From Candidatus Magasanikbacteria bacterium GW2011_GWA2_56_11 (GTDB lineage: Bacteria; Patescibacteriota; Patescibacteriia; Magasanikbacterales; UBA922), in assembly GCA_001004885.1 (NCBI GenBank), contig LCRX01000001.1, positions 9,849-73,848 of the forward strand: 64,000 nucleotides of DNA. Direction: 5' to 3'. Position numbers and translations under genes: made by a program. Position 1 is the stretch's first letter; every line of letters begins with the position of its first letter. Of the stretch, positions 3,637-53,447 are shown piece after piece. The notes under the pieces were generated by a model that saw nothing but the letters and a program-made list of their open reading frames with translations, ran no database searches and had not been told where the DNA came from.

Positions 3637-5370
3637 GTGGAGCATAAGGCGCTGAATTTACTTCGGCGGCTAATGCCCCGCAAGGATACGACCATAGGGC
3701 GGGGGGAAAGCAGGTTACTCTTGGCCGCTTCAATCGCAGCCGCGCAAGACCTCGTCCGGCTCTTTGCCGGGTGGGGTCTGGCGTACCTCGATAGCCTCAT
3801 CCGGATCGACTCGTCGAGCGACGAGCGCTCCGGCACGGTTCCGAGCACGCCCGGGCAGCTGGCCCTTCTGGACTTCCTTCGCGAGGTCCTGGGGGGCTTC
3901 GGCTACCAGTGCGAGACCGACGCCTCCGGGGCGCTGCTCGCGCACGTCGGCGCCAACCTTCCGGCGGGCTCTACGTGCCCACCGGTGGCCTTCATCACGC
4001 ACATCGACAACTCTCTCGGCACCGTCTGTCCGGAGCGCCTCACGCGCGTCGAGCGGTGGGACGGGAGCCGCCTTGCCTACCCTGGCAACCAGCGGCTCAA
4101 CGTCTCGGTTGCCGCCTACCCGGCGCTCCAGGCGTTTGTGGGCCATGACGTCCTCCACGGCCCGGGCACCGGTCCGGTCGGACTGGACGACAAGCTCGGT
4201 GTGGCCGAGGTCCTGACGCTGGCCCGCTACCTGGCGGAACACCCCGAGATCCGGCACGGGACGATCGTCCTGTGCTTCCGGCCGGACGAGGAGATCGGCC
4301 GCGATGAGGCGGTCCAGTCGTTGGCCCGGCGGCTCGCTGAACTCGGCGTGACCCGGGCCTACACCGTGGACGGCCACACGGCGTTCGAGGTGAGCACCGT
4401 TTGCTTCAACGCCAGCGAGATGGCGATCCGCGTTCCGGCTCCGCCTCTCCACCTCACCGACAGCGTCGGGGAGCCCCAGTTCCGGTGCGCTCGCACCATG
4501 CGGCTCCGGATCCAGGGCGTTCGTACGCACGGGGCCACGGCCAAGGCCGAAGGGTACCGCAACGCGGTCCGTATCTTCACGGCCGTGATGAGCCGGATGT
4601 CTTCGTGGCAGCACGTCGTGCCGGTCGAATTCACGACCGATCCGGCGGACGAGACGGCGGCCGATGTCACGATGCTCATCCGTGGCCGCGATGAGTCCGA
4701 GCTCGACCGCTGGCAGAGCATCTTCGTCACTCAACTTGGTCAGGAAGTTGCGCCCCATGCGGAGAGAGGCGCTGGCCAGGAGGTGATGGGTACGGCCGCC
4801 GTCGCGCCGACGGACGGCCAGGGGTTCTCGGACGGCCTTAGGAAGATCATCACGATCATCGTTCTGTTCCAAAACACGCCTTCAGCTCGCCCTCTGTTCT
4901 CCGAGGACAGCGAGGGGTGGGAGGGGTACTCCAACCCCTTCACCATCACTCGTGATGGTGATCACTGGATCGTCCGCTTCCGTCTGCGGGATTTCGATCC
5001 CCGTGACCTGGCGAGGCGGGAGGACCACGTCCAGCGTGTGGCTCATTTCTCGGGCCTGCCCGAGGAGGCTGTCCACCATCGGCCGCAATACCGGGACATC
5101 AGCCCGCGGCTCGAGAGCTACCCGGAGCTCGTCGCCTGGGCCGAGGCGGCGGCCGAGCGCATCAGCGCCTCGATCCAGCGCCATCCGATCCGCGGCGGCA
5201 CTGGCGTCGGCCCGTTCCTGGATGCCGGCATCGGGGTCGCCAACCTCGGCACCGGCTACCACGGGCTCGAGAGCCCTACCGAGCTCACGAGCCTGGAGAT
5301 GATCGGGCGCCACGCCGAGTGGCTCGTCGCTCTCGTCGAGGTGGTCGCCGCGGTCCGCACCGGGTCGTAG
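3637..5370 (+). CDS. M20 family metallopeptidase, peptidase T-like (start codon uncertain, 3637 or 3673); ~68-70% GC island
   Basis: HIDNS..., GLDDKLGVAEV and FRPDEEIGRDE motifs match M20/PepT metal-binding signatures; GC rises abruptly at ~3700. Confidence 0.6.
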   Translation: MEHKALNLLRRLMPRKDTTIGRGESRLLLAASIAAAQDLVRLFAGWGLAYLDSLIRIDSSSDERSGTVPSTPGQLALLDFLREVLGGFGYQCETDASGALLAHVGANLPAGSTCPPVAFITHIDNSLGTVCPERLTRVERWDGSRLAYPGNQRLNVSVAAYPALQAFVGHDVLHGPGTGPVGLDDKLGVAEVLTLARYLAEHPEIRHGTIVLCFRPDEEIGRDEAVQSLARRLAELGVTRAYTVDGHTAFEVSTVCFNASEMAIRVPAPPLHLTDSVGEPQFRCARTMRLRIQGVRTHGATAKAEGYRNAVRIFTAVMSRMSSWQHVVPVEFTTDPADETAADVTMLIRGRDESELDRWQSIFVTQLGQEVAPHAERGAGQEVMGTAAVAPTDGQGFSDGLRKIITIIVLFQNTPSARPLFSEDSEGWEGYSNPFTITRDGDHWIVRFRLRDFDPRDLARREDHVQRVAHFSGLPEEAVHHRPQYRDISPRLESYPELVAWAEAAAERISASIQRHPIRGGTGVGPFLDAGIGVANLGTGYHGLESPTELTSLEMIGRHAEWLVALVEVVAAVRTGS

Positions 5371-5454
5371 CGATCGCGCCGAGGGCGTCGCGGAGGTGTT
5401 CCTGCCTGCCTCCGCTCACTGACTATCCTTTTTAGGTTTAGAAGGGATTGAAGT

Positions 5455-5484
5455 CGAAAAAAGAACCGCTGGGTTCTTTTTTTG
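5455..5484 (+). terminator. Rho-independent terminator-like hairpin (AAGAACC-GCTG-GGTTCTT + T-run)
   Basis: perfect 7-bp stem followed by TTTTTTT directly downstream of the M20 peptidase gene. Confidence 0.6.
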
Positions 5485-5732
5485 TTCGTTTCTCTGACTG
5501 CTTTCAAAATGTATGCGAGATAATTATCTTGGATCCAAGTTTCTAACGCAACAGCGTTATGAATTAATTAGCCGGTCGAAAACCTCATAGGGCGTCTGGA
5601 AATTAAGTGTCTTTCTCGGTCGTCCGTTCAAGAGGTGCTGGGCTCTTTTCACTTCGTATCTGGATACTTTAGTAAAGTCGGTTCCTTTGCAAGCACACGC
5701 CCGCCTGCCCCTAGTTCCTTTTTAAGGAGGGA

Positions 5733-5801
5733 CGCTGATTCGTTCCCCGTCGAATCAGCAACAAACAAAAAACACCACGCCAGTGGTGTTTTTTGTTTGT
5801 T
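5733..5801. terminator. Two consecutive perfect hairpins (GCTGATTCG/CGAATCAGC; AACAAACAAAAAACACCAC/GTGGTGTTTTTTGTTTGTT), bidirectional terminator-like
   Basis: 9-bp and 19-bp perfect inverted repeats read directly from sequence in AT-rich spacer. Confidence 0.5.
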
Positions 5802-5897
5802 GGTCGGTTAATAAGGACGTCTCGAGAGAGACGGGATATTGACCAGAATACGTATTTATGGTATGAAACAGTGGCCCTACTTACCAGGAGACTTCTG

Positions 5898-6236
5898 ATG
5901 AAAATGGTTTTTTTGATGTTGGCCCTCATGTTCCTCCTGCTCTTGCCGGTTTTGATCCGCGGCATCTGGCGGCGGCGCTTGGTGCGGCGGAAGCTGGTAT
6001 GGCGTGTGCTGGACGCCGAGACGGTCCAGCGCGAGCGGCGACGCTTGCGGGAGATCAAGCAGGATCTGCCGCCGGGAGACACCTACTGGCGCCCGGCCAA
6101 CAACGACTACCGGCACCTCCTGGCTGTCGAATTCGGAGCCGATGTGCTGGTAATGAAGATATCGGACGAGGGCGAGGACCTCTGGGAGGTGTTCCACCTG
6201 TGTGCGCGTCGCCATCTGCGCACGGTCAAGAGGTAG
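5898..6236 (+). CDS. Small hypothetical protein, N-terminal TM helix then Arg-rich region (112 aa); high GC
   Basis: AGGAG RBS 8 nt upstream of ATG 5898; hydrophobic MKMVFLMLALMFLLLLPVLI segment; ORF in 70% GC island. Confidence 0.4.
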   Translation: MKMVFLMLALMFLLLLPVLIRGIWRRRLVRRKLVWRVLDAETVQRERRRLREIKQDLPPGDTYWRPANNDYRHLLAVEFGADVLVMKISDEGEDLWEVFHLCARRHLRTVKR

Positions 6237-6516
6237 AGAGCGCCTGACACATCCTGTACCGGGGTGGGAAGCAACAGCCGCCCGACAACCTGCTTAGATT
6301 CTAAAGCATTGGAATTTGGGCAGGGAGAATCGGGCGGTTTTTGTTTGGATTAGATTTGCCTCGGGGTTCAGGCAAAAAATCGCTGTTTAGACGGTCTTTT
6401 ATCTGAAAATGGATTGGGGCACTTCGGTTTATCGGAGAACAGGTAACTGCTACCTAATAATATAAGGGAAAAGTACATATTTTGGCTAAATTTATATAAA
6501 TATTTGGACAAAACTC

Positions 6517-6545: not shown

Positions 6546-6691
6546 GATGTGTCTAATTAAAGAGGGTAGACGTGCTCCTTACAAGAGAAGATGAATAAAT
6601 AGGCTGGGTTGGTCCCTGGCGAGTATTCGTACTCTCTACAGAGCAACCCAGCCGGTAGCCAACCCGGCATTGATGACAAGGAGATCGACCG

Positions 6692-7807
6692 ATGATCAGC
6701 GCCCAGAACCTCATGGCCTCCGTTCGCCCCCTCCTCGCCTCGATGATCACGATGCCGATGGGTCGCCTCAACGAGCTCATCGCTGACGTCGAGCGGTCCT
6801 TCCAGACCCCACAGGTGGGCCCGTACCACTGCGAGGGCCCCTTCATGGGCAGCCACCTCGTCGGCGTCGCGAATACCGTCGACGACGTGGGACGCGGTGA
6901 GTTCCACCCCAACGTCCCCTACGAGGTGCGGCCCTTCATGGTGGCCGCTGCGCGGACCCGTGCCGTCATCGCCGGCGCTCACGTGCTCCTGCACGACGTG
7001 GACAAGCTCACGACCATGACGTTCGTCTACGCGGACGGCCGCAAGGTGCCGGTCAGCTACGACGAGTGGGTCGCGCTGCTCGAGACGGACTCCGACGGCC
7101 CCGCGATCCGCGAGGGCGACGGCCCGGCGCTCGAGCGCTTCTGCGCGCGGCACGGCGTCACCCAGATCTCCTACTACCAGGAGGCCGAGGGTGGGAAGAT
7201 CAGCCACGGCAAGAAGGCGGCCGACCGGCTGCGCGACTACGCCGAGCTGCTCCTGGTCAACGGCATCGAGACCCACGAGGTCGCCTTCCTGTTCGGGGAC
7301 CGCGGCGGCATCAACTTGCCGCTCTTCCACGAGCACTTCGGCGACTGGAGCGAGGGCGACGTGGCCTACGCCTTGGTCGTCAACTACGCCGACCAGATGG
7401 GCTCGCTCAAGGCCGACGGGCAGCCTGACATCTCGGACTTCCGGTGGTTCGCCAGGACCTGGCGGGCCTACGTCGCCTTCCAGGTCGTCAAGGCGAACCT
7501 CGCCGGCCTGCGGCTCGACACGCACAAGGCGTCCCGCCTGATGGACGTCCTCTGGAAGAGTGCCGACGCCTTCCAACAGGAGACCGCCGATGACGTGCTG
7601 GCCCGCATCCGGGCCGAGTGCGAGCTCCGCTCGTTCTCCGAGGAGCGTATCCGCGCCGCGCTCATGCCGGTCGTCTGGCTCTCGTCCGAGCTCGCCGACG
7701 CCATCGTCGCCGACATGGTCCGCGACGGGAAGCTCTCGAGCGAGACGGGCAAGAAGCTCGGCGCGCACAACAAGCCGGTCCGCGCCGCGCTCGCCGGCCT
7801 CGCCTAG
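6692..7807 (+). CDS. Hypothetical protein with possible HD-domain phosphohydrolase motif (H...HD..K); high GC
   Basis: GSHLVGV...HVLLHDVDKL spacing resembles HD domain; otherwise unrecognised; 371 aa. Confidence 0.4.
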   Translation: MISAQNLMASVRPLLASMITMPMGRLNELIADVERSFQTPQVGPYHCEGPFMGSHLVGVANTVDDVGRGEFHPNVPYEVRPFMVAAARTRAVIAGAHVLLHDVDKLTTMTFVYADGRKVPVSYDEWVALLETDSDGPAIREGDGPALERFCARHGVTQISYYQEAEGGKISHGKKAADRLRDYAELLLVNGIETHEVAFLFGDRGGINLPLFHEHFGDWSEGDVAYALVVNYADQMGSLKADGQPDISDFRWFARTWRAYVAFQVVKANLAGLRLDTHKASRLMDVLWKSADAFQQETADDVLARIRAECELRSFSEERIRAALMPVVWLSSELADAIVADMVRDGKLSSETGKKLGAHNKPVRAALAGLA

Positions 7808-8071
7808 AGACTACCTACCAAACCATCTTCTCACCCCCCCCGGCCGCTCGCAGCACGCACTCGCGCGTGGCGGCCGGACTCCAACTAGTATCCTTAGGTT
7901 ATAGGGGTACTTGAGGAGGAAGCTCTTTCCAAATTACGACATGTCCCAATTGTGGGTACGTAGCTTTGTGTGGGCCATCTTTCCATGGCACATAAAGAGC
8001 TACGTACCCCCGGCTTGAAGTGGGGGTGAGATCGAAGTTCGTCCGATACGAGTACGAGACGAGGAGAACTC

Positions 8072-8602
8072 ATGAACACGTCCCTGACCACCGCCTGCGG
8101 CACCGGGATCAACCTGAACGCACAGACCCTGCAGCACCTCGAGGCGCACCCCGACGCGGCCGCCCTCCTGGAGGAGGCCATCGGCAAGATCACCATCGGC
8201 GAGCGGGAGTTCGTCCTCGAGGAGGTCGACATGGGGCGGATCGTCGCCCGGTCGTCCCTCGTCGACGCTCCGGCCATCGCGTCCGACCAGCCCACCGCGT
8301 TCGCGTGCCGCAAGGGTCGCGACATCGCCTCCCGGGTCCTCGTCGGCGCCGTGAAGCCGGACACCAACCTGTTCACCGTCATCGCCGGCAAGCAGGACGA
8401 CGGGAGCTGGTTGCTCTACTCCGGCTTCCCGGGCCCCTTGGCCCCGCGCGAGCCGCACGACCCCAACCTCAAGGGCAACGCCACCGAGCTGGCCTTCTGG
8501 TGCGAGCACGCGCTCGTCTGGGAGGACGGCTGGGAGCAGCCGTTCGAGTCCACCTGGATCGAGGTGATCGCGGCGGCCGCGGCCAAGCGCGCGGCGGCGT
8601 AG
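8072..8602 (+). CDS. Hypothetical protein (176 aa), high GC
   Basis: intact ORF with GGAG-like RBS region; no recognisable family. Confidence 0.35.
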   Translation: MNTSLTTACGTGINLNAQTLQHLEAHPDAAALLEEAIGKITIGEREFVLEEVDMGRIVARSSLVDAPAIASDQPTAFACRKGRDIASRVLVGAVKPDTNLFTVIAGKQDDGSWLLYSGFPGPLAPREPHDPNLKGNATELAFWCEHALVWEDGWEQPFESTWIEVIAAAAAKRAAA

Positions 8603-9134
8603 GTGACCCGAAGGTCGCCGGGGACATGTCGAACACTACCTTGATCGGCGCAAGCTGAGCGGGGTGTGTGAACGACGAGGCGGCGCCATGTGCGTCGCCT
8701 CGGTCCTCTAGCAGTAATACTGCTACTGATGAGTCCAGAGATTGGTACGAAGGACGAAAGGATCTAAAACACTCTTTATACGGGTGTTTTATTGTTCTCC
8801 TGTCTGCTTAAGTTGCTTAATCTGGTCATTTATAACGATCAATGTATCTATATTGATTTCGTGTTTCGAAGGCGCATTAAATTCGCTAAACACTATTTTA
8901 GTAGGCTTATCTAAACCCTGAAGCGGTCGGCCGTCTTATCCGGGCGCCGCCGCGCGCTTTGAGACAATTTTCTGCAGTCATCGCACTGTAACGCCCCCTG
9001 ATATTTGTCTTTCTTGGCAGTATTGCGAGATTGGCAAAAGGACATAACCTGATCTTTTGACCATGATTTATATCACAATTAAAAAAGCGCATTTCTGCTC
9101 TAGAGTTTAACAAAAAAGGACACTTTTACGTACC

Positions 9135-9245: not shown

Positions 9246-10238
9246 ATGAGTACGGATATATACCCTACTTACCGACCGCCTGAACCCGCCGTAAAGATTG
9301 AAGGGTCTTATTCTTTAGGACAATTCTTAACAGAAATTTCCCCGGAGGGCCGTAACATTTCTGCAGACCAGGAAGAGGGGTTACTTGGAGATTTAAGGAA
9401 ACGTGAGGCGGCGGTAGCCAACAAGGAATTATTGGAAGCATTAGAGGAATACGGTATTGACCCGCACTTGATTGAAGTTCGTCCCGATGGACGTATTCGT
9501 ATTGAAGTACGCAACCATTTTAGCAAAAAACATTTACCTGATGGGTACGCCTATAAAGGCGGGGCGGCCCGTGCTCTTCTTCTGCGCAGCCTGGGCAGTG
9601 TTTTGCAAGTTGAACCTCGCGATATTGATGTGGTCCGCCTAGCCCCCGAAGAACCGTATAAGGGCGCCGATACGGAGCTTGCCAAAGAGTTTATGCCTGA
9701 TGATTTCTCCGAAGGCTGGGGCGTAGAAATAATTAATTCAGAGGATCAATACTTTTCTACCCGTGATGTAACCGTCAACGAAGTTTTGGCCACCGATCAT
9801 GAAGTAATCGCTACCGAGCAATGCGTTATTGACGCCGTCCGTCATATTATTCGTTTAACCGAATTCGAACGTGGTTCAGACAAAGACATATATACTACTC
9901 CAGGTCCGAAAATGCTAGCGAAAATATTAAGGCTCTACTCTGAGTCTATCCATTATTTTGGTGAGGCGGAGATTGCTAATGTCGAAGGTTGGGAGTTTGA
10001 ACAAGCCTTTATTTCCCCATTTTGGCTGGCGTTGCAGCTTGATCATGCGTTTGAAAGGAGCCGTGAGATCGCCGCGCTCTATGTGGAGGAGCTCAAAAAA
10101 CATGGCCAGGTACCACCCCATATTGCTGGACCCGAGGAGGCAGCGATTTACCTGTCAAATTTGATCCGAGGCGAATTTTATTATCGGCACGCGCCCGTGG
10201 AACAGTTTGAATTGGAAGATGAGTGGATGGAAAATTGA
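9246..10238 (+). CDS. Polymerase-beta superfamily nucleotidyltransferase-like protein (PolyA_pol/CCA-adding head-domain-like motif); low GC (~45%)
   Basis: YKGGAARALLLRSLG...RDIDVV resembles the GGAVRDxLLG...DIDI motif of class II CCA/poly(A) polymerases; rest of the 330-aa protein unrecognised. Confidence 0.4.
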   Translation: MSTDIYPTYRPPEPAVKIEGSYSLGQFLTEISPEGRNISADQEEGLLGDLRKREAAVANKELLEALEEYGIDPHLIEVRPDGRIRIEVRNHFSKKHLPDGYAYKGGAARALLLRSLGSVLQVEPRDIDVVRLAPEEPYKGADTELAKEFMPDDFSEGWGVEIINSEDQYFSTRDVTVNEVLATDHEVIATEQCVIDAVRHIIRLTEFERGSDKDIYTTPGPKMLAKILRLYSESIHYFGEAEIANVEGWEFEQAFISPFWLALQLDHAFERSREIAALYVEELKKHGQVPPHIAGPEEAAIYLSNLIRGEFYYRHAPVEQFELEDEWMEN

Positions 10239-10395
10239 AGATAATTTGTTACTCGTAGACGACAAGGTTTTTGGCTGGAACACCCAGGAACCAGTTGTTC
10301 GACGGTGGATCGGGGCGTTTGTGTTTTTTGGGCTGGCGGTATCGATCGATAGGTTTTTCGGATGAAACAACGCTCCGGTCATAACGGTTACTTTT

Positions 10396-11205
10396 TTAAT
10401 CATCCCCTATATAGTGTTGTTTTTCCCAGGCGTCTCGTGTCATTACGCTAATGTTTTTGACCCCGCCTGCATCTAACATCTCGACGGCCATTTGCCTGTC
10501 CGACTCGCTACCGATCAAAACGGCAACACAATTTCCATCGAGAGGCGCGTCTGATATAGTCGGATACTGTAGCGTGGCGTCATAGCTGCCAAGCTCCATC
10601 ATTTTTGGCCCCATGACAAGGACGACTCCTTTGCCAGACGCACCTACCCCATGTGGGGTTAAACCCTTGTTAATAAGATCGCCATTTTTATCAAAAATAT
10701 CCCTCGTCATCATTACATCATCACTTGCTGACCACGCTGGCGGGTTAGCATCAGGGTTTCTTTTTTTAATTTCTGATCGCGATAAAAGTCCGCCGGCTTC
10801 AATGATTCTTTTAAAATTTTCAAAACTCGTTTGGTGATAATGAAATACTCTTTCGGGAGAATCAATGCGCCCCTTTGCGAATGAGCGTATTTCTGCCAAG
10901 ATAACGCTTGGCTCTACCCCTTTCTCTTTTGCTTTGTGGCGAATCATCCGGTCTTTGCCCCGATAACTTTCCATTTGGAGCCTGGCGAGGAATTGTTGTC
11001 TTTCGGCGGGGGTTAGGGCCGGTTTTTCTTTTTCAGGAACCAAAGCTACTGTTGAATCATAATTCGTATTACCATCCCACGTGGCGGCTTTCGATACGTC
11101 AAACGTACCATCTGCCCGCTGTGCCGCGCCAACAATATACTTTGGTTTTTCGGTGCATGCCCCGGTGGCATGATCCCTTCCACAAACTTTGCATCTTGAT
11201 TCCAT
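10396..11205 (-). CDS. Hypothetical protein with N-terminal CxxC...C zinc-ribbon-like motif (269 aa); low GC
   Basis: CKVCGRDHATGAC at N-terminus; convergent with the NTase-like gene. Confidence 0.35.
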   Translation of the reverse strand: MESRCKVCGRDHATGACTEKPKYIVGAAQRADGTFDVSKAATWDGNTNYDSTVALVPEKEKPALTPAERQQFLARLQMESYRGKDRMIRHKAKEKGVEPSVILAEIRSFAKGRIDSPERVFHYHQTSFENFKRIIEAGGLLSRSEIKKRNPDANPPAWSASDDVMMTRDIFDKNGDLINKGLTPHGVGASGKGVVLVMGPKMMELGSYDATLQYPTISDAPLDGNCVAVLIGSESDRQMAVEMLDAGGVKNISVMTRDAWEKQHYIGDD

Positions 11206-11597
11206 ACAGGAATTGGGTTTAGCAAGTCTAAGTAAGTTTCCTCGATTTTTTCCAGTGTTTCAGGTTGAATGAGGGCCTTTTACACATTTAAGTACAGTAA
11301 TTTCAACTACCATTACTATAGCTGTTTTTTGCAATAATGCAATTGGCAAGAGATCGCACGAAGCGTCTTAAGGAATTTAATTAAAACGAAGCGGAGAACA
11401 AGGAGCCACTAGCCAACTGCCTCTGTACTTTGAAACGATGCCGGGCTACTGAAAAGAAATGGAATACGCAGAAAAAATTAAATTCCAGAATTCGATTTTT
11501 TCTTAAAACCGCGTACCAATATCCGGAATTTGAACCCCCGAAATTTTCTCTTATCTTCCAACAAAAAAGAGAGCTTGCATGTGCAAACCCCCAGTTG

Positions 11598-11669
11598 TAG
11601 CGCCAAGGGGAATTGAACCCCTGTTCCCAGGATGAAAACCTGGTGTCCTAACCACTAGACGATGGCGCC
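11598..11669 (-). tRNA. tRNA-Glu (anticodon TTC)
   Basis: reverse complement GGCGCCATCGTCTAGTGGTTAGGACACCAGGTTTTCATCCTGGGAACAGGGGTTCAATTCCCCTTGGCGCT folds as cloverleaf with TTC anticodon; close to E. coli tRNA-Glu. Confidence 0.8.
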
Positions 11670-17344: not shown

Positions 17345-17420
17345 CGGTTATTCCTCGGCCAGACTCGGCGCGGGGTGCATGCGTTCCCGGCTGGCGTCGG
17401 GAAAGGAGGGGTTACAAACC

Positions 17421-18575: not shown

Positions 18576-18654
18576 TCCTCCCACCATGGTTCTCTACGGC
18601 GCCCACCGGCGCCGCCCGCCCAGTCATCCGACTGGGCTTCTACATTTATATAGG

Positions 18655-19535: not shown

Positions 19536-19538
19536 TCT

Positions 19539-43781: not shown

Positions 43782-43854
43782 GCCATCTTAGCTCAGCTGG
43801 TAGAGCAACGGTTTTGTAAACCGTAGGTCGCGGGTTCGAATCCCGCAGATGGCT
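43782..43854 (+). tRNA. tRNA-Thr (anticodon TGT)
   Basis: GCCATCTTAGCTCAGCTGGTAGAGCAACGGTTTTGTAAACCGTAGGTCGCGGGTTCGAATCCCGCAGATGGCT; perfect acceptor stem. Confidence 0.8.
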
Positions 43855-43859
43855 CACAA

Positions 43860-43943
43860 GGGTCGGTTCCAGAGCGGTCAAATGGGGCAGACTGTAAATC
43901 TGCTGGCTCTACGCCTTCGCAGGTTCGAATCCTGCCCGGCCCA
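43860..43943 (+). tRNA. tRNA-Tyr (anticodon GTA, long variable arm)
   Basis: GGGTCGGTTCCAGAGCGGTCAAATGGGGCAGACTGTAAATCTGC... close to E. coli tRNA-Tyr. Confidence 0.8.
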
Positions 43944-43951
43944 CATAATTT

Positions 43952-44991: not shown

Positions 44992-45130
44992 TTAAAAATA
45001 ATGGCGCGCTCTCGGTTCAGTATACCAGGAAAATAAGGGGCGTCAATTTTGGTTTTATAAACAAAAAAACGCCTGGGTGCGTCTTGGGGATGGGGTGTGT
45101 CACTCTCTGTGGGGGTATAGTCTCGCCCGG

Positions 45131-46724
45131 TCAGTCTCCGATGAGGCCGGCGAGCGTGAGGAGCGGCTTCGCGACGCCGCCGATGCCCTCGCCGACGATC
45201 GAGCCGACGGCGATGGTGGTGAGCGTCATCTCGGACCACTTCAGTAAGCGCCCCAGGACGACCCAGAGCAGGATGCCGCCCAGGAAGAACCCCAGGTCGT
45301 AGCCGATCGGCAGGATTAGGCCGATCCCGATCCCGATCGAACCCGGCAGCCAGCGCTTGAACTTCGTCTCCTCGAGAAGCGTGTAGGCGACGCCGATGAG
45401 GGCGCCGATCAGCAGGGCCTCGAGGGCGAAGTCGGGGAGGGGCTTCTTGCCCTCGAAGATGAGGGCGCTCGTGGCCCAGATCTTGGCCACCGGGGCCGGG
45501 AGCGTCCCGGTCTCGAAGTTGAGCGATTCGGCCGTCGCGATCTGGCCGAAGACGAAGGCGGCGATGAGCGCGCAGGGGATGATGGTCGCCGTCTGCAGCC
45601 AGAACTGGACGCCCGGCCGGACCTTGAACCATCGGCCGTAGGCCAGGTCGCCTGCAAGGTTGCCGGCTTGGGCGCCGCTGCCGGCGACCATACCGGCTCC
45701 GGTCAGCGTCGCGTCCGCGGCCGGCGCTCCGCACATGGCGGTAAAGCCTTGGAGGAGCACCCCCATCACCCGCGCTGGGTTGAACGCTGTCTGCGCCGCC
45801 GCCCGGGTGGCGATGATGTTTTGCAGAAGGCCGCCGACGACGATGAGGCCGATGACGAGCATTACCGAGAGCCCCCACCCGATGTGCAGGAACAGCACGG
45901 TGGCGAGCAGGCTCACGGCCGCGAACTCCGGCGTGAGGTCGAGCTATTGGAAGACAGCCATAAGCGTCCTGCATATCGGCGGGCAGGTAGCGCGCCATCA
46001 CGACGAGGACGATGGCGCCGACGAGGAAGCCGACGCTGGTGCGCAGGCCCATGAGGTAGGCGCCTCCGATCGCGAAGGGCGACCAGGCGATGGCCGCCCC
46101 GTAGGCCGCGAGCCCGAAGATCGCGAGCTCGGTGCTCTCGGGGACGAGGGCGAAGCCGCCGTCGCTGTTCAGGACCACGTAGCCGCAGCAGGCGACGAAC
46201 GTGGCCAGGAGGTAGTACGGCTGCCGGCGGTCGCCGCGCTCGGCCAGGGTCTCGATGATGCTCTTCGTGGCCACCGAGCTGGGCCAGGGCAGCTTGTCGC
46301 GCACGATGAGGAGCTCGCGCAAGAGCGGCACGAAGGCCAGGCCGACGAGGCTCGTGACGACGATGAAGGACACCATGCCCCAGAACGTCAGGGCGCCGCC
46401 CACCATGAACTTGGCCGCGAAGAAGTTCGAGACAAAGCCCAGACTCCCTCCGGCCGATCCCATCGTGGCCACGATCACGAGCTCGTGCGAGCTGATCTTG
46501 GTCCGCGAGAGGAAGAAGCAGGCGAAGAAGATGAGAGCCGCGATGGTCGGCCCTTCCTCGATCACCCCGAACGACAGGGTGAGGTAGGAGTTCATGGCGC
46601 ACAACAGGGCCGCGAGCACGAAGCCCGCGGCCACGCTCCGGAACGTCAGGGTCTGGGCCGCGGGCGCCGGGGAAACCGGCTCGGCCTGCGGTTGGCTTAC
46701 TTCCGCTACACTTGCACTCACCAC
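45131..46724 (-). pseudogene. OPT-family oligopeptide transporter gene, apparently frameshifted near 45930-45960; ~68% GC
   Basis: N-terminal 300 aa in one frame (…LCAMNSYLTLSFGVIEEGPTIAALIF…) and C-terminal 261 aa in another frame; junction …MQDAYG | LDLTPEFAAVSLLATV…. Confidence 0.55.
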
Positions 46725-46957
46725 TCACCTCGCTTGTACTAACAGAGAGTGACACTTCTTCTGTCCACCTCTCCGGGTCTACCAACTTTCTGCCGCTTCT
46801 GCGGCAGCATGCCCTTTCGAGATGGACATGTTTCTCCCTGTTAGCAGTTGAATTGTAGAGAACAGATTGGCAGAAGCTTATAGCGAAAGCAGCGGGTTTG
46901 TCAAGGCGGGATGGACAGGCGGTGGACGGCCGGGTACAATAAAAACGTTCTATTTTT

Positions 46958-48030: not shown

Positions 48031-48104
48031 GCACGCCTAGCTCAGTTGGTTAGAGCATCTCGTTTACACCGAGAGGGTCGGGGGTTCGAATCCCTCGGCG
48101 TGCA
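48031..48104 (+). tRNA. tRNA-Val (anticodon TAC)
   Basis: GCACGCCTAGCTCAGTTGGTTAGAGCATCTCGTTTACACCGAGAGGGTCGGGGGTTCGAATCCCTCGGCGTGCA. Confidence 0.8.
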
Positions 48105-48149
48105 CACCTCCGCCCCGCTTTGGCGGGTTGCGGTACCAGGCAAATACAA

Positions 48150-48222
48150 GCCGTTGTAGCTCAGTTGGTAGAGCGCGTCCATGGTAAGGACGAGGTCACC
48201 GGTTCAATCCCGGTCAACGGCT
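48150..48222 (+). tRNA. tRNA-Thr (anticodon GGT)
   Basis: GCCGTTGTAGCTCAGTTGGTAGAGCGCGTCCATGGTAAGGACGAGGTCACCGGTTCAATCCCGGTCAACGGCT. Confidence 0.8.
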
Positions 48223-48226
48223 CGGG

Positions 48227-48254
48227 TAAAACTCCGCCCCCCTAGGCGGAGTTT
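48227..48254 (+). terminator. Hairpin AAAACTCCGCC-CCCCTA-GGCGGAGTTTT
   Basis: perfect IR with T-run after tRNA-Thr. Confidence 0.7.
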
Positions 48255-48322: not shown

Positions 48323-48910
48323 ATGAAAATGACGTCCGCAGTTATTGAGATAATAACGCTTATTATCGTAATTTTAGGCTTACTTTTTTTTGATTTTGCC
48401 ACAAGCAATTACGTTGTCCTCATTTCAATTCTAGTTGTCGGTTCTCGACTGGGATGGCTCTTTTACAAAAGAGAATTAACCCTGAAAGCAAATATCCAGA
48501 AAGAAGGCAGAATTTTTTCCGGGTGGATGAGGTATGGGACAATACTGTTGCTAGCGTTCGGTTTGTTGTTTGTATTCCAAGATGACATTAAAGGTTTGCC
48601 TATCTGGCTTACCGACCAAGAGCCTGTTTGGTTTACCTTTTTTCATGTGGGGGCACAGGAGGCAATTTTTAGGGTTTACCTTTTAAGCAGACTACAGACA
48701 ATACTTGATAGCCGAGCTGTTATTGCGGTTCTAGGCGGTCTTTTGTTCGGAGTTGTCCATTTCATTTTACCCGGTGCTTTGATAGTCGTGGCCTTCACCT
48801 CCATCTTGGGTACCGCCTGGTGTTACGTTTATCAACGGTATCCTAATTTCATCCTTGTCTGGCTTTCTCACACTTTGTTAAATTTCGCAATTAAGAGTTT
48901 GGTACAGTAG
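48323..48910 (+). CDS. CPBP family intramembrane metalloprotease (CAAX protease/Abi-like); ~40% GC
   Basis: motifs QEAIFR (EExxxR-like), FGVVHF (FxxxH), SHTLLNF (HxxxN) in a polytopic membrane protein. Confidence 0.6.
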   Translation: MKMTSAVIEIITLIIVILGLLFFDFATSNYVVLISILVVGSRLGWLFYKRELTLKANIQKEGRIFSGWMRYGTILLLAFGLLFVFQDDIKGLPIWLTDQEPVWFTFFHVGAQEAIFRVYLLSRLQTILDSRAVIAVLGGLLFGVVHFILPGALIVVAFTSILGTAWCYVYQRYPNFILVWLSHTLLNFAIKSLVQ

Positions 48911-48973
48911 GTCAACCATTTTAGTATATAACGGACCAAGTGTTACCTGACTCGTAGGGGTGACACTAAGGCA

Positions 48974-49061
48974 GTCCTAACTTCATACACCAAACGGCTC
49001 GGGTTAAAAGATGGCTCATTTAACCATCTTTTTTCGTACCCTTTGGCCGGGTTTGAACTGC
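48974..49061. repeat. Intergenic repeat family copy A (GTCCTAAC...CCAAACGGCTCGGGTTAAAAGATGG..CCATCTTTTTT..CGTACCCTTTGGCCGGGTTTGAACTGC)
   Basis: shares ~88 bp with copies at 50056 and 51839 including terminator-like hairpin. Confidence 0.8.
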
Positions 49062-49104
49062 AGTAGATCATCTGTTATTATAAACCCAGCCATAAATTTA
49101 GCGT

Positions 49105-49575
49105 ATGAATAAGATTATAGTTATAAGAGGGCCACTAGGTGTGGGTAAAACGACTGTTTCAAAGCTGTTAGCTAAAAAGCTTGGAGCAGAGTATCTGTCG
49201 GTTGATAAAATTCTTAGTGATAACAATTTAGATAAGGACGACGATATCTCAGTTGAAAATTTTTTGAAAGCCAATGAAATAATTACTGGAATTTCCGATG
49301 GAAATAGAGGACCGTATGTTATTGACGGGAATTTTTACTACCAGAAACAAATTGACGATCTAAAAAATAGATTTAAAGATGGAGTGGCTATCTTTACTAT
49401 TACAAGTACTGTAGAGAAATGTATTAAGCGAGACGCACAAAGGGAAAAAGTATATGGCGAAGATTCTGTGAGGTATGTATACATGGTGGTGTCTAAAGTT
49501 AAGGCGGGTATTGAAATAGATAATACTGACCTAACAATAGAGGAGACTATTCAAACAATAATAGACAACTTGTAG
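49105..49575 (+). CDS. P-loop NTPase/kinase-like protein (156 aa); low GC
   Basis: Walker A GPLGVGKTT; size and layout like small nucleoside/shikimate-kinase-type or zeta-toxin-like AAA proteins. Confidence 0.55.
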   Translation: MNKIIVIRGPLGVGKTTVSKLLAKKLGAEYLSVDKILSDNNLDKDDDISVENFLKANEIITGISDGNRGPYVIDGNFYYQKQIDDLKNRFKDGVAIFTITSTVEKCIKRDAQREKVYGEDSVRYVYMVVSKVKAGIEIDNTDLTIEETIQTIIDNL

Positions 49576-49588
49576 CCCAAAGTAGTAT

Positions 49589-50056
49589 ATGGACGAAATC
49601 CATTTTTCAAAACTGACCGATGTGGGTGGAATTGAAGTACTACGCGGCAGATCTGGCCGGTATAATGACTTTGTGTACACGTATGAGAGACCTACGCTCG
49701 ATTTGCTGAAGAAAAATTTTTTTCTTCGGGATAGCCTTTATTTGGTAGCGGATAATGGAACCGTGTTTGTCGCCTTTTGTTCAATAGATAGGGACTGGTG
49801 GGAGAATAATTTTTTTATGATACGAGAAATTATCGTGGACCAAAATTTCCAAAAGCAGGGCATTGGGGAGACAATAATGCGGATGTGCATAGAGCATGCA
49901 CAAAGCAAGGGGGCAGCGGGGGTGGTGACAGAAACGGCCTTTGAAAATATACCAATGCAAAAATTGTGCATTAAGTTAGGTTTTAAAGTTTGGGATAATC
50001 CACAGTGGAAAGAGGGGGTAACCTATAAGTTACTATTCCAGGAGAGGCACAATTAG
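49589..50056 (+). CDS. GNAT family N-acetyltransferase (155 aa); low GC
   Basis: IVDQNFQKQGIGETIM... (Q/R-x-x-G-x-G/A acetyl-CoA motif). Confidence 0.7.
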   Translation: MDEIHFSKLTDVGGIEVLRGRSGRYNDFVYTYERPTLDLLKKNFFLRDSLYLVADNGTVFVAFCSIDRDWWENNFFMIREIIVDQNFQKQGIGETIMRMCIEHAQSKGAAGVVTETAFENIPMQKLCIKLGFKVWDNPQWKEGVTYKLLFQERHN

Positions 50057-50213
50057 TCCTAACGTGCTCCACCAAACGGCTCGGGTAAAAAGATGGCTTA
50101 AATGAGCCATCTTTTTACGTACCCTTTGGCCGGGTTTGAACTGCTTTTACGATTGGTGTGTGTTTTAATTTATAGATTAAGCTTAAATAAGCATTTTTAT
50201 CGCCCTACGAAAG
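50056..50213. repeat. Intergenic repeat family copy B (long form, carries TTGACA-N17-TAGGTT promoter-like motif at 50232-50260 just downstream)
   Basis: ~158 bp alignable with copy C; hairpin AAAGATGGCTTAAATGAGCCATCTTT + T5. Confidence 0.8.
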
Positions 50214-50307
50214 CGCCGATCGAACGGTTGACAAGCCCAACTTTATCCTGTAGGTTATACTATTCCTACCCGCAGGCAGGAATGGCAACCACAGGAGGAA
50301 ATCGTTC

Positions 50308-51235
50308 ATGAGAGTTTACGTTCTGAACACCGGCGGAACACTGGGCATGGTCGGAGATCCGCTCCGTCCGGCCAAGTCGGCGGCCGAGCTCCTCGAGGGG
50401 GTCAAGGTCCCCCCGGGCACCGAGCTCACGCTCGTTGACTTCAGGCTCCGCCAGGACTCGACCAACGTCATGCACCAGGACCGCGTGGCGATGGGCCGGG
50501 AGATTGAGACGGCCTATGAGGAGCACGACGCGTTCGTGGTTCTCCATGGCACCGACTCGCTCGCCGAGACGTGTGCCTTCCTGGCGATGTTGTTCAAGCA
50601 GTCGCTCCAGAAGCCGCTCTTCGTCATCGGCGCGCAGATGACGAAGGACGAGCCCGGTTCGGACGTGCGACTTCAACGCCTTCCACACGCCTGGACGCCA
50701 CCCTGTGGCCCAAGCCTGGCCGCACGTCATGATCAAGCCGGGCGTGCGCAAGAGGGACGGCGTCCTCGATGTGCAGGGGCTGCGCCTCGACACGGAGTTC
50801 GAGCAGCACGTCGCCTCGGTCGTGGTCTCGGCCGACACGCCGCCCTATGTCCTCATGGACATGGTCAGGGCTGGGCGCATCAAGGGCGTCATCCTTGAGT
50901 GCAAGGGCGCTGGGAATATCCCGGACCGGCCCTGGCAGATCGGCGAGGAGAGCTACTCGTGGATCGACGCCATCCAGGCGGCGACCGCAGCCGGCATCGT
51001 GGTCGGCATCGTCTCCCCGTTCGAGGACGGCCGTGTCATCCTCGACCGCTACGAGCTCGGCGCCAAGGCCAAGGCGGCTGGCGCGATCGGGCTTGCGAGC
51101 CTGACGCCGGCCATGGCTGACGTGAAGCTCCGCCAGGCGATCGCCATGCACCGAGGCCACCCCGACCGCATTCAGCGCTTCATCGAGACGAACCTCGTCG
51201 GCGAGCTCCTCGACGGCTACGAGGACGCGGCCTAG
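50308..51235 (+). pseudogene. Type I L-asparaginase/glutaminase family gene, apparently frameshifted near 50665-50680; ~70% GC
   Basis: N-terminal VLNTGGTLGM and VLHGTDSLAETCAF motifs in frame 1; C-terminal GVILECKGAGNIP domain in another frame (ORF 50705-51235). Confidence 0.55.
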
Positions 51236-51520
51236 GCCGACGACACCGTTCGGAACGAAACTCCACTCCGGCGAGGGCAACCGGCTAACCCTCATCCCAC
51301 TATCTTTTGTAGACAATTTAGAGAAGATTGAGGAACAAAAATCTCCGACACGCGCGGGGATTTTTGTTATAGCTGTTTGAGAGGTGTTTGTTTTAGCCGT
51401 TATTTATCAATTTACTTCAATAAATCAGAAGTCACAATGTATTCTAACCACCACCCAGCACCTTGACAAAACCTCAGTTATATGCTAGCTTGGGTACATC
51501 ACCCCGATAAGGAGTTGGAC

Positions 51521-51715
51521 ATGAAGAAATGGATATGCCGCCTCGCGGCGGCTGTGTTCACGGGCGCGTGCGCCGCGCCCATCCTGAGCGGTGTCGCCGC
51601 GGGCGAGGGTACTTGCTCCGGCAAGATCGCCTTCGTGGCTTTCTACGTCCTCACGTGCGTGCTTTCCGCCGCTACCCTCGCGAGTGCGGCGAATCAGGCA
51701 CTCACCAAGGCGTGA
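51521..51715 (+). CDS. Small (64 aa) Cys-containing secreted/membrane peptide; high GC
   Basis: AAGGAG RBS before ATG 51521; MKKWICRLAAAVFTGACAAPILSGVAAGEGTCSGKIAFVAFYVLTCVLSAATLASAANQALTKA: signal-like N-terminus plus second hydrophobic helix. Confidence 0.4.
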   Translation: MKKWICRLAAAVFTGACAAPILSGVAAGEGTCSGKIAFVAFYVLTCVLSAATLASAANQALTKA

Positions 51716-51799
51716 AGCGGTGCGGCGAGCGGGGGCGTGTCTCTGGAGAGCGCCCCCGAAACCTTCTTTTGTTAGTCATCTTGGCTGGAAGAAGAAGCA

Positions 51800-51830
51800 A
51801 CAAAAGCACCCGGACAGGTGCTTTTGTTTA
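51800..51830 (+). terminator. Hairpin AAAAGCACC-CGGACA-GGTGCTTTTGTT
   Basis: perfect 9-bp IR with T-run after the small peptide gene. Confidence 0.7.
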
Positions 51831-51838
51831 TCGTTGAA

Positions 51839-51996
51839 GTCCTAACGTCCCGCGCCAAACGGCTCGGGTTAAGAGATGGCTAAGATAGCCATCTCTTTTT
51901 GTATCCTTTAGCCGGGTTTGAACTGCTTTTACAATTGGTGGATAGCTTGTAATTTTCAGATTAAGCCTAAATAAGCATTTTATCGCCTTACAAAAG
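51839..51996. repeat. Intergenic repeat family copy C (long form; followed by TTGACA at 51999)
   Basis: hairpin AGAGATGGCTA-AGA-TAGCCATCTCT + T5 with compensatory changes relative to copies A/B. Confidence 0.8.
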
Positions 51997-52118
51997 TTGA
52001 CAAAATCATTTTTTTTCTGATAGGTTAGGTGAACTTGCACGGACAAGGACGGTTGCACTCAGGATGGCGGGATGGGCCCGTTAATCTTTGTGGAACCTCG
52101 AAGGAGCGTGAGTTTATG

Positions 52119-53447
52119 GGAAAAAGGAGAGTTCGAGGGGCGGTCGAAAGTGACCGTCAGTTCGTCTCTGACCTGATGGAAGGTGCGCTGAGCCCGTACT
52201 ACGACGGGAACCACCGTGCGCACGCCAACCGGATCTTCACCACCCACATCAACGGGGGTGAGGATCACAGGGGACACTTCTCCTCCGAGCAGAAGATGTT
52301 CATCCTGGAGGAAGACGAGCGTCCCATCGGCATGATCAACATCGTGCGCAAGAAGCAGGGCACGTGGAAGATCAGCCCCCTCATCATCGACCCGAGCCGC
52401 CGGGGCACGGGTGGGTGCGGTACCGAACTCCTCACCTACGCGGAGAACTACGCGAAGGAGCGGGGTGTGCGGCAGATGTACTGCACCGTGGCGCAGCAGA
52501 ACCACGCCGCGTTCGGCTTTTTCCGGAAGAAGGGCTACATCTGCGCGGGTCAGGCTTCGAGCCACTACAAGCCCGGCATCACCGAGCGGATGATGTACAA
52601 GATCTTCTTCACGCCCGAGGAGGTGGAACACTTCGATCGCGTCTCCATCTCGGTGCTCCCCATGACGGACGAGCACAAGCCGGAGGTGGAAGCGCTCATC
52701 ATCGAGAAGTTGTCGCATCACTTCAACGGCGTCGACGCGAGCTGGGTGCAGGCCCTGTTCGACGGTTACGACCGTCGCAACTCCGGCGAGGTCAATGATA
52801 AGTACAAGCTGATCTACGTCGCGACCGATCGGTCGGGCAAGGTCATCGGTGTCGCTGGCGCCACGCCGAAGAAGGGTGAGCCGATCAAGATCATGCCATG
52901 CGTGGCCTACACGGCACAGGCCTTCGCTGCGCTGATCGCGGACATCCCTCAGCACTTGCGGGAGTACGGACGGAAGCTCTACATCCACCTCGTGCCGAGC
53001 GTGGAGGAGACCATCATGCTCCAGCGTCTGGGCTGGTCCATCGAGGCCATCATGCCCGCCGCCTACAACGACAACTACTGCACCCAACAGTGGGGCATCG
53101 ATCTGGGGAGTACCTACATGAGGACCATGCGCGTGAAGGCGAACTTCCATCGCCTGATCATGTCCGGCGTCAAGCCCCTCGAGGTGCGGGTCGGCTACGG
53201 CAACATCAAGTCGATCCGGGTCGGTGAGAAGATCCGCCTGATGAGCCGTTCGCTCGACGGCGTGATCAGGGTGCTCGGCGTGCGCCGCTACGACACCTTC
53301 GCGGAGATGCTCAAGCACGAGGATGGTGGCAAGATCGTCCCGGGCATGGATGACCGGCAGGTGCTTCAGCTCCTGCAGGACATCTACCCGCCGCACAAGG
53401 AGCGTCTCGGTGTCTACGTCATCGAGGTCGATCCCGTCAAGAACTGA
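52119..53447 (+). CDS. GNAT acetyltransferase (possibly tandem GNAT) fused to C-terminal ASCH/PUA-like domain (442 aa); ~68% GC
   Basis: GAAGGAG RBS before ATG 52119; RRGTGGCGTELLTYAENYAKERGV acetyl-CoA motif; C-terminal MRVKANFHRLIMSGVKPLEVRVGYGNIKSIRVGEKIRLM resembles ASCH. Confidence 0.5.
   Translation, partial: GKRRVRGAVESDRQFVSDLMEGALSPYYDGNHRAHANRIFTTHINGGEDHRGHFSSEQKMFILEEDERPIGMINIVRKKQGTWKISPLIIDPSRRGTGGCGTELLTYAENYAKERGVRQMYCTVAQQNHAAFGFFRKKGYICAGQASSHYKPGITERMMYKIFFTPEEVEHFDRVSISVLPMTDEHKPEVEALIIEKLSHHFNGVDASWVQALFDGYDRRNSGEVNDKYKLIYVATDRSGKVIGVAGATPKKGEPIKIMPCVAYTAQAFAALIADIPQHLREYGRKLYIHLVPSVEETIMLQRLGWSIEAIMPAAYNDNYCTQQWGIDLGSTYMRTMRVKANFHRLIMSGVKPLEVRVGYGNIKSIRVGEKIRLMSRSLDGVIRVLGVRRYDTFAEMLKHEDGGKIVPGMDDRQVLQLLQDIYPPHKERLGVYVIEVDPVKN

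Follow-up and report, generated by a model that had tools for sequence, protein, structure and literature searches.

The stretch of DNA analysed here (the window; 64,000 nucleotides, positions 9,849 to 73,848 of contig LCRX01000001.1) belongs to contig UY92_C0001 (locus tags UY92_C0001G00xx) of Candidatus Magasanikbacteria bacterium GW2011_GWA2_56_11, a genome of the candidate phyla radiation (CPR; Patescibacteria) from Rifle groundwater. Within a window GC content of 0.556, nine genes stand out as GC-rich islands. They encode an M20/PepT-like tripeptidase (M20), the hypothetical proteins h112, h371 and h176, a divergent pyridoxal-phosphate (PLP) enzyme, an OPT-family oligopeptide transporter, a type I asparaginase, a small hydrophobic peptide (s64) and a GNAT-ASCH fusion protein. 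The initial annotation had described them as single-gene islands bracketed by AT-rich spacers with consensus promoters and hairpin terminators, and had proposed cassette-like acquisition, amelioration of intergenic DNA only, or chimerism of the assembly or bin as possible origins. Our data point to repeated capture of single foreign open reading frames (ORFs) into hot spots next to tRNA genes, in a genome that otherwise does without Shine–Dalgarno (SD) sites, as the probable though by no means certain explanation. Our literature searches turned up no earlier account of this mosaic.

With genes delimited according to public gene calls, all nine are indeed compositional outliers. Their GC content at third codon positions (GC3) is 0.80–0.98, against a median of 0.67 (median absolute deviation 0.06) over all genes in the composition table; the individual values are, in order, 0.86 (M20), 0.84 (h112), 0.96 (h371), 0.98 (h176), 0.92 (PLP enzyme), 0.92–0.93 (OPT transporter), 0.88–0.92 (asparaginase), 0.80 (s64) and 0.87 (GNAT-ASCH). 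The uniform 68–72% GC originally ascribed to them does not hold, the actual range being 61–71%, with h112 at 62%, GNAT-ASCH at 61% and s64 at 66%. High-GC segments in a three-state hidden Markov model (HMM) cover eight of the nine ORFs and, judged by GC3, lie nowhere else; GNAT-ASCH is assigned to the middle state despite its GC3. Two additional high-GC segments, located in tsaD and o576, were rejected as islands, as they are due to amino-acid composition and not to GC3. Past the stop codon, the HMM islands keep a GC-rich 3' flank of 43–104 nt; in several islands the GC-rich stretch also reaches upstream of the start codon, and in four a significantly stable GC-rich hairpin directly follows the stop codon. 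The window also holds a third class, overlooked before, of at least eight low-GC genes with GC3 values of 0.23–0.52 (h330, h269, o190, Rce1, h144, GNAT155, ASCH107, the RhuM fragment and h153). The spacers around the islands, by contrast, are not specially AT-rich as had been claimed: at 44–55% GC, compared with 29–55% between backbone genes (plus one 102-nt spacer at 69%), they differ from backbone spacers in length alone, being longer (104–643 nt). Several strong hairpins do occur in these spacers, but overall counts of terminator-like hairpins do not exceed those in shuffled sequences (22 versus 20.2 and 15 versus 13.5).

The compositional division of the window is matched by a division in translation initiation. 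When an SD site is defined as AGGAG, AAGGAG or GGAGG located 5–9 nt before the start codon, such sites precede 8/9 high-GC genes, 0/36 backbone genes and 1/8 low-GC genes (Fisher p = 9e-8), which bears out the strong AGGAG-type ribosome-binding sites noted earlier; M20 is the sole island gene without a clear SD site at its called starts. Backbone upstream regions are AT-rich and SD-less, and they are likewise so in four related genomes (loci L101, L107, L021 and L109). Over 809 ORFs in 80 related loci, an SD site is found in 62% of those with raised GC3 (at least 0.15 above the median of their locus) versus 18% of the others, with frequencies at control positions for the same ORF sets of 24–27% and 11–12%, respectively. 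About half of the Parcubacteria are without an anti-SD motif on their 16S rRNA (PMC9297842), and the SD-less backbone is consistent with this. Codon usage follows the same line. C exceeds G at third positions (C3 > G3) in all nine islands, and CTC exceeds CTG in all except h112; in the backbone, C3 equals G3 and CTG is used more than CTC. Translational selection on C-ending codons was considered as the sole cause of the high GC3 and rejected, since G/(G+A) at two-fold sites is also up.

Bacteroidota are another lineage that initiates translation without SD pairing. The window resembles such SD-independent lineages in its AT-rich upstream regions and in the complete lack of SD sites among the 36 backbone genes, but is unlike them in that a minority of its genes, exactly the GC-rich ones, have strong SD sites. 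Exact matches to TTGACA-N16-18-TAnnnT occur 11 times in the window, where 0.47 are expected, and six of them lie directly upstream of island genes; M20, h112 and h176 are without an exact motif, so that the initially reported consensus promoters were found at six islands and not at every one. Because the same motif precedes rplJ, tRNA operons and csoR, the promoters at the islands are of host type.

Table 1. Coordinates of the high-GC islands, promoters, repeats, tRNA genes, low-GC genes and assembly deviations within the window (DR, direct repeat; aa, amino acids).
Feature	Position	Strand	Remarks
Island 1, M20/PepT-like tripeptidase	3664..5415	+	ORF 3673 or 3721 to 5370; GC 0.68
Island 2, h112, 112-aa membrane-anchored hypothetical protein	5886..6284	+	ORF 5898-6236; GC 0.62; AGGAG SD
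Island 3, h371, 371-aa HD-superfamily-like	6647..7882	+	ORF 6692-7807; AAGGAG SD; GC-rich 3' hairpin
Island 4, h176, 176-aa hypothetical	8057..8706	+	ORF 8072-8602; GC 0.71; AGGAG SD
Island 5, divergent Cys/Met-metabolism PLP enzyme	17353..18621	+	ORF 17379 or 17421 to 18575; AAGGAGG SD
Island 6, OPT-family oligopeptide transporter	45070..46740	-	ORF 45131-46721/46724; Pfam OPT; GAGGTGA SD
Island 7, type I asparaginase	50290..51285	+	ORF 50308-51235; Pfam Asparaginase and Asparaginase_C; AGGAGG SD
Island 8, s64, 64-aa hydrophobic peptide	51505..51758	+	ORF 51521-51715; GC 0.66; AAGGAG SD
Island 9, GNAT-ASCH fusion protein	52037..53499	+	ORF 52116-53447; GC 0.61; AAGGAG SD
Promoter, h371	6517-6545	+	exact motif, sigma-70 host-type
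Promoter, PLP enzyme	17316-17344	+	exact motif
Promoter, OPT transporter	46875-46904	-	exact motif
Promoter, asparaginase	50228-50256	+	exact motif
Promoter, s64	51463-51491	+	exact motif
Promoter, GNAT-ASCH	51997-52026	+	exact motif
Promoter motif, four further sites			before rplJ, two tRNA operons and csoR
Promoter motif, remaining site	26923-26951	-	exact motif, no assigned gene
DR1	48966..49075	+	tRNA-Thr 3' core, terminator hairpin, conserved right arm; nhmmer E = 4e-32; fold z = -2.6
DR2	50049..50260	+	runs into asparaginase promoter module; fold z = -3.6
DR3	51833..52026	+	runs into GNAT-ASCH promoter module
tRNA-Glu	11597..11669	-	bounds variable region 1 (3462-11596)
tRNA-Thr(UGU) and tRNA-Tyr	43782..43944	+	just upstream of DUF378, coiled-coil lipoprotein and OPT stretch
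tRNA-Val and tRNA-Thr(GGU)	48031..48230	+	tRNAs end at 48223; head of 48.2-54.4 kb stretch
h330 (+) and h269 (-), low-GC	9246..11205	+/-	GC 0.47, GC3 0.43-0.44
Rce1-like, h144 (P-loop kinase-like) and GNAT155, low-GC	48323..50056	+	GC 0.34-0.42, GC3 0.31-0.47
ASCH107, low-GC partner of GNAT-ASCH	53563..53886	+	GC 0.33, GC3 0.23
RhuM-family N-terminal fragment, low-GC	53957..54196	+	79 aa; Pfam Virulence_RhuM 8.5e-23
Deviation 1	45927-45962		36 nt in place of 170 nt; breaks OPT gene
Deviation 2	50668/50669		125 nt missing; breaks asparaginase gene
Deviation 3	58983/58984		107 nt missing; breaks 446/460-aa gene

An abrupt change of composition at the scale of single genes raises the question of whether the contig itself is sound. 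When the window was compared by BLAST with 20 fetched loci from at least six assemblies, which represent different samples and contig-naming styles (ANAN16 scaffolds, k127 and k141 contigs, a NODE_ contig and two JGI Ga records), every island–backbone junction was recovered at 99.3–100% identity in at least six independent assemblies, and all sampled strains of the same species were found to carry every island. This reproduction of the junctions across independent assemblies excludes chimerism, short of read-level support. The deposited contig nevertheless deviates from all other assemblies of the population at three sites (table 1), where the 2015 assembly probably contains local errors that give rise to false pseudogenes. 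Thus, the OPT transporter gene is intact (574 aa) in the other assemblies and broken in the window only, and the asparaginase gene, intact (350 aa) in six other assemblies, is frameshifted in the window only; the NCBI protein KKW43044 is just a 176-aa C-terminal piece of the asparaginase.

Four of the high-GC genes (M20, h112, h371 and h176) are co-oriented in variable region 1, each followed by a hairpin. Searches with TsaD yielded only relatives of Magasanikbacteria type, at up to 63% identity and with loci of 35–50% GC, in which the gene order h128-h200-h747-rplL-rplJ-(gap)-tsaD-dnaE is kept wherever the loci reach. The gap between tsaD and rplJ measures 8.5 kb and holds six genes in the window and ranges from 0.3 to about 7 kb in the relatives that have both genes; none of the six window genes occurs in the tsaD-rplJ gap of the 80 related loci. 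This variation in length and the absence of the window genes from all these loci identify the gap as a variable hot spot. Among the relatives, ORFs with raised GC3 are lineage-specific in 69% of cases versus 35% for other ORFs (p = 8e-6). The two remaining gap genes, the low-GC h330 and h269, have no family matches save a weak DarT hit. PADLOC returned marginal DarT and VakA hits only. In many relatives, the tsaD loci also contain a ribose-phosphate pyrophosphokinase-like gene (among others L024 7068-8024, L075 11277-12344 and L057 14534-15577), located directly downstream of tsaD in L024 and L075, whose GC3 is strongly raised (by 0.19 to 0.43) in some species and unraised in others; some lineages thus seem to have exchanged their copy of a housekeeping-type gene for a foreign one.

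M20 gives an indication of where such genes may come from. It matches Pfam Peptidase_M20, with the NCBIfam PepT models remaining below their cutoffs, and its non-self homologs are 40–49% identical; those with names belong to Myxococcota, Myxococcales, Haliangium and one member of the Proteobacteria, and no CPR-labelled match is found among the best 120, most of which are nameless. One of the closest homologs (49% identity) resides on a 1.94-Mb contig with 72% GC, GC3 values of 0.92–0.98, C3 > G3 and SD motifs upstream of most genes, i.e. the very signature of the islands. Judged by such comparisons, the closest homologs of M20 appear to lie outside its host's own lineage. For h371, an exhaustive HMMER search produced 155 cluster representatives at E <= 0.001, the best being about 50% identical. 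A member of the best-hit cluster (49% by tblastn) is found inside a 10-kb, seven-gene block with GC3 values of 0.75–0.86, where six genes have an SD site by the above definition, in a groundwater metagenome-assembled genome (MAG) of 52% GC with an almost SD-less backbone. The 'HD-like' label given to h371 is plausible on account of the invariant residues H..HD..H..HE..D, but unproven, as an AlphaFold2 model with a pLDDT (predicted local distance difference test score) of 96 has only weak fold matches to phosphodiesterase and HD-GYP structures. Its 3' hairpin has a z of -3.6, and the GC-rich, structured 3' flank of h176 (104 nt) one of -5.1. h176 itself matches phrog_23674 at 1e-11 and is 29–33% identical to hypothetical proteins from large phages that infect enterobacteria, Pseudomonas and Xanthomonas; h112 has no match in Pfam, NCBIfam or PHROG. 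Between M20 and h112, the spacer contains the relic of an IS30-family transposase gene at 5560..5685 (-), consisting of its 3' end with the last ~42 codons. This 42-aa fragment, which includes LNGRPRKTLNFQTPYEVF, matches 821 plasmid records, with 47–52% identity among the matches listed, and most of the annotated plasmid matches are labelled IS30 family transposase.

The window contains five tRNA genes, and each variable stretch adjoins one. Downstream of tRNA-Thr(GGU), this association extends to repeated sequences. The last 8 nt of the tRNA and 7 nt downstream (48216-48230, AACGGCTCGGGTAAA) form the core of three direct repeats, DR1 to DR3; the 15-nt string AACGGCTCGGGTWAA, which corresponds to the last 8 nt of tRNA-Thr(GGU) plus its 3' flank, is contained in each of them and is present in four copies where 0.28 are expected, and 16 nt of DR2 are identical to the tRNA-Thr 3' end. 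The repeats (110–200 nt) each fold as a terminator-like imperfect hairpin, with compensatory changes among the copies. DR2 and DR3, 83% identical over 159 nt, share about 100 nt more, a stretch in which the -35 boxes of both promoters (asparaginase and GNAT-ASCH) lie. Altogether, the repeats split the stretch into the units Rce1 / h144 and GNAT155 / asparaginase and s64 / GNAT-ASCH onward, cassette boundaries that do not match the GC islands. No copies of the 3' end of tRNA-Glu or tRNA-Tyr were found, including in region 1, whose spacers have no repeats in common. A search for the repeat pattern gave none in viral contigs and one occurrence in JGI metagenomes, on an unrelated 59% GC contig; there, AACGGCTCGGGT...GCCGGGTTTGAAC (L106 4452-4502) fits both conserved repeat blocks, which may reflect chance or a distant relative of the repeat.

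In tblastn searches against plasmids, the asparaginase gave matches of 25–32% across mixed taxa, and the OPT transporter and h371 gave none; neither GNAT-ASCH nor the asparaginase has relatives in viral contigs. Among the low-GC genes, GNAT155 shares 52% identity with a gene of a low-GC Magasanikbacteria relative (L037), and the RhuM fragment spans profile positions 17–76 of 252, with fragments also present in the low-GC relatives L060 and L066. Given the location of the IS30 relic and the RhuM fragment, the long spacers are in part debris of earlier insertions.

How could such a mosaic have arisen? We infer that the majority of the nine high-GC genes were taken up as xenologs, ORF by ORF, from GC-rich, SD-using bacteria. 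Each gene would have brought along its own SD site and 40–100 nt of GC-rich 3' flank, often with a hairpin, while the remaining donor flanks would have been lost by deletion. Insertions would have piled up in the variable regions beside tRNA genes, and serial site-specific integration at tRNA-Thr(GGU) would leave behind just such a repeat-divided stretch. The sigma-70 promoters would be supplied by host-type intergenic DNA, being of the kind that drives rplJ and the tRNA operons, and would thus have been recruited by the captured genes. The low-GC genes in the same regions may be imports from typical low-GC Magasanikbacteria. Cassette-like acquisition, as initially envisaged, is therefore upheld for most islands by their SD sites and codon signature, the Myxococcota homologs of M20, the absence of the region-1 genes from the tsaD-rplJ gap of relatives, the att-like repeats downstream of tRNA-Thr and the IS30 relic in one spacer, but not for the PLP enzyme and GNAT-ASCH.

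In several respects, the variable stretches are like classical tRNA-linked genomic islands and islets, which arise by integrase-mediated site-specific integration and may accrete in tandem at a single tRNA gene. With these they share atypical composition, adjacency to tRNA genes, direct repeats of a tRNA 3' end (that of tRNA-Thr(GGU)), relics of mobility genes (IS30 transposase, RhuM) and variability among relatives. They are unlike these in that the units are tiny (1–2 genes, 1–1.8 kb), that att-like repeats are found in one of three regions only, that these repeats carry a terminator and in two copies also a promoter module, that high-GC and low-GC cargo alternates in one array, and that an integrase is lacking in the window.

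Some of our observations weigh against this explanation. Scans of most window ORFs against Pfam, NCBIfam and PHROG revealed no integrase or recombinase in the window, the IS30 relic being all there is; no empty-site strain was found among the sampled strains; and, with M20 just 49% identical to its best homolog, no actual donor was identified. Moreover, the comparison of homolog origins covers four of the nine genes (M20, h371, the PLP enzyme and GNAT-ASCH), and for two of these (the PLP enzyme and GNAT-ASCH) the best hits fall in the host's own lineage, a result that the initial annotation had itself named as one that would weaken horizontal transfer; h371, with its homolog in a high-GC island of another MAG, is ambiguous in this respect. 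Of 19 homologs found for the PLP enzyme, the sole informatively named close match is from Magasanikbacteria, three more lie in the same conserved cluster, and no non-CPR homolog closer than 28–34% was found. The gene is syntenic in L101, L104 and L107, where it is likewise located amid methyltransferase-like paralogs and phosphoenolpyruvate (PEP)-utilizer proteins, and its identity to these orthologs (40–48% at the amino-acid level) is about the same as for the genes on either side. GC3 is 0.92 in the window and 0.83, 0.78 and 0.67 in the orthologs of L101, L104 and L107, respectively, with neighbours mostly at 0.39–0.69; the PLP gene is the one cluster gene with clearly raised GC3 in each species, and both C/(C+T) and G/(G+A) are up. 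Three of the four species (the window, L101 and L107) also keep the SD site. Even the promoter is conserved in its peculiar architecture, in which the -35 box TTGACA sits in the loop of the terminator hairpin of the preceding gene and is followed by a T-run and the -10 box (window 17309-17344, L101 9870-9915, L107 7880-7917). At 40–48% identity, neutral amelioration should have erased any foreign composition. From these comparisons, the PLP enzyme, which also lacks adjacency to a tRNA gene, is an old resident of the lineage and not a recent import, and simple recent transfer does not explain it. GNAT-ASCH is a lesser case of the same kind, i.e. an old resident that retains the island signature. 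It has a 62% identical ortholog in L021, which in that genome of ~41% GC adjoins tsaD, is followed by the ortholog of ASCH107 and has a raised GC3 of 0.67, compared with 0.33–0.39. ASCH107 is 55% identical to its L021 ortholog, and the two adjacent genes have opposite compositions in both genomes (GC3 of 0.87/0.23 in the window and 0.67/0.24 in L021). The PLP enzyme and GNAT-ASCH may either have been acquired long ago with their composition being maintained ever since, or be representatives of a native gene class.

The PLP gene also shows an unusual polymorphism. In its N-terminal part, a tract at 17426..17623 (+) has about 60 differences per 200 nt in L003, L008 and L010, whereas outside the tract the same strains differ at 0–9 positions per kb. 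The tract is in-frame, sharply bounded and ~70% identical, and since all substitution types are present, a diversity-generating retroelement was ruled out as its cause. Such a 200-nt tract between near-identical strains indicates that the PLP gene recombines with divergent alleles. Downstream of the gene (18702-27460), a tandem array of seven methyltransferase-like paralogs (~280 aa each) precedes genes for PEP-utilizer-domain proteins and an acylphosphatase; this cluster is kept in several Magasanikbacteria, with the number of paralogs varying.

Could, then, all nine genes be native? They would in this case form a class of strongly promoted single-gene units with SD-led initiation, whose synonymous sites are kept GC-rich by selection or by GC-biased gene conversion at frequently recombining genes. 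The PLP gene fits this idea well, with raised GC3 in four species at a divergence like that of its neighbours, shifts in both C/(C+T) and G/(G+A), an SD site and a promoter built into the upstream terminator in three of the four, and its recombinant tract, and so do the opposite compositions of GNAT-ASCH and ASCH107, maintained across genomes 15 GC points apart, and the strongest promoter motif on 6/9 genes. On the other hand, the named relatives of M20 are of Myxococcota type only, with a close homolog in a 72% GC genome that has the same signature and SD sites, the GC3-raised genes of the relatives are mostly lineage-specific, the region-1 genes are missing from all 80 syntenic loci, and rplJ and rplL have a consensus promoter but no SD site, and a GC3 that is just mildly raised. 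As an account of the islands as a whole, we regard a native class as unlikely. A small but appreciable chance may be granted to the related proposition that SD-less CPR genomes hold a long-lived second class of genes, which are GC-rich, SD-led, strongly promoted and singly transcribed and whose composition, instead of decaying, is actively maintained, be it through selection linked to SD-dependent initiation or through GC-biased gene conversion in genes prone to recombination; both the PLP gene and the GNAT-ASCH/ASCH107 pair would fit. It seems improbable that an integron-like system of site-specific capture assembled all islands as its cassettes, with the hairpin spacers serving as attC-type sites. 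Integron arrays and clusters of attC sites lacking integrases (CALINs) do come to mind when three same-direction imperfect-hairpin repeats bracket short, co-oriented cassettes of one or two genes with cargo of mixed origin, and the four co-oriented region-1 genes, each with its hairpin, could be seen in the same light. Neither an integron integrase (IntI) nor a tyrosine recombinase is present in the window, however, and the three repeats are confined to 48.9–52.0 kb, with none shared by the region-1 spacers. Their core is shared with a tRNA 3' end, which is typical of integrative elements and not of attI. Inspection by eye, with no pattern scan run, revealed no R''/R' cores (RYYYAAC, GTTRRRY) at the repeat ends, where CCAAAC...GTTTGAA does not fit the consensus. 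Asparaginase, s64 and GNAT-ASCH each have a promoter of their own, asparaginase and s64 share one cassette with boundaries unlike those of the GC islands, and the repeat pattern is absent from viral contigs and occurs just once, on an unrelated contig, in JGI metagenomes.

Transfer of large high-GC fragments followed by amelioration of the intergenic DNA alone, another of the initial proposals, would account for spacers that are AT-richer than the ORFs and for the persistence of short GC-rich flanks, but synonymous sites should ameliorate about as fast and yet have GC3 values of 0.80–0.98. Spacer GC is simply the normal intergenic GC of this genome, the spacers contain unrelated material (the IS30 relic, copies of the tRNA-Thr 3' core and host-type promoters), and adjacent islands have different GC3 values (0.84 to 0.98) and homologs of different affinity, all of which makes this scenario very improbable. 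Practically no credence can be given to the idea of a chimera, with pieces from a high-GC organism joined into a CPR contig during assembly or binning. Gene-sized jumps in composition and three local discrepancies of the deposited contig are what might suggest it; it is effectively refuted by the presence of the same junctions in independent assemblies, and in addition orthologs of the PLP enzyme and GNAT-ASCH occur in similar context in MAGs of separate assemblies, and host-type promoters directly adjoin the foreign ORFs. Overall, ordinary horizontal transfer into tRNA-linked hot spots probably explains most of what is seen, with one unexplained twist, i.e. a persistent signature. According to the amelioration model, reportedly put forward by Lawrence and Ochman for compositionally atypical transferred genes, deviant GC3 and codon usage, mostly lineage-specific genes and a plausible donor-class signature are as expected; contrary to its prediction, the foreign-like signature persists at the same locus in four species for the PLP enzyme and in two for GNAT-ASCH/ASCH107.

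A few further features of the window and of related loci should be recorded. The coiled-coil LPP-like lipoprotein gene near the OPT transporter (44419-44991, -) contains at least 12 tandem units of 21 nt (44524-44880), and two palindromic elements of ~160 nt, 65% similar and intergenic, are located downstream of mreB (31489-31645) and upstream of csoR (61587-61748). The gene-scale mosaic is also seen in other groundwater MAGs of CPR type. Around tsaD, L021 (1-12000; backbone ~41% GC) combines four segments of raised GC with several genes of very low GC, and in L109 (1700-11800) an island of 10 kb contains Csx3, MoxR and VWA genes.

For work on such genomes, our data have several practical consequences. 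In SD-less genomes, an SD site is a simple marker of import that is independent of composition. Decontamination tools based on composition could wrongly cut genomes like this one, and the deposited contig itself appears to hold three local assembly errors that result in false pseudogenes. The persistent signature of the PLP enzyme conflicts with amelioration as it is used to date transfers. If a second, actively maintained gene class does exist, the compositional traces of horizontal transfer would not necessarily ameliorate, and translation would be initiated in two different ways within one small genome.

The window provides a probable record of gene flow into a CPR organism, with GC-rich bacteria outside the CPR as the source. 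The recognizable cargo serves mostly peptide and amino-acid scavenging, i.e. a tripeptidase, an oligopeptide transporter, an asparaginase and a PLP enzyme of Cys/Met type. Such cargo suits an organism dependent on other cells, and the captured genes may, through their donor signature, indicate who its partners are.

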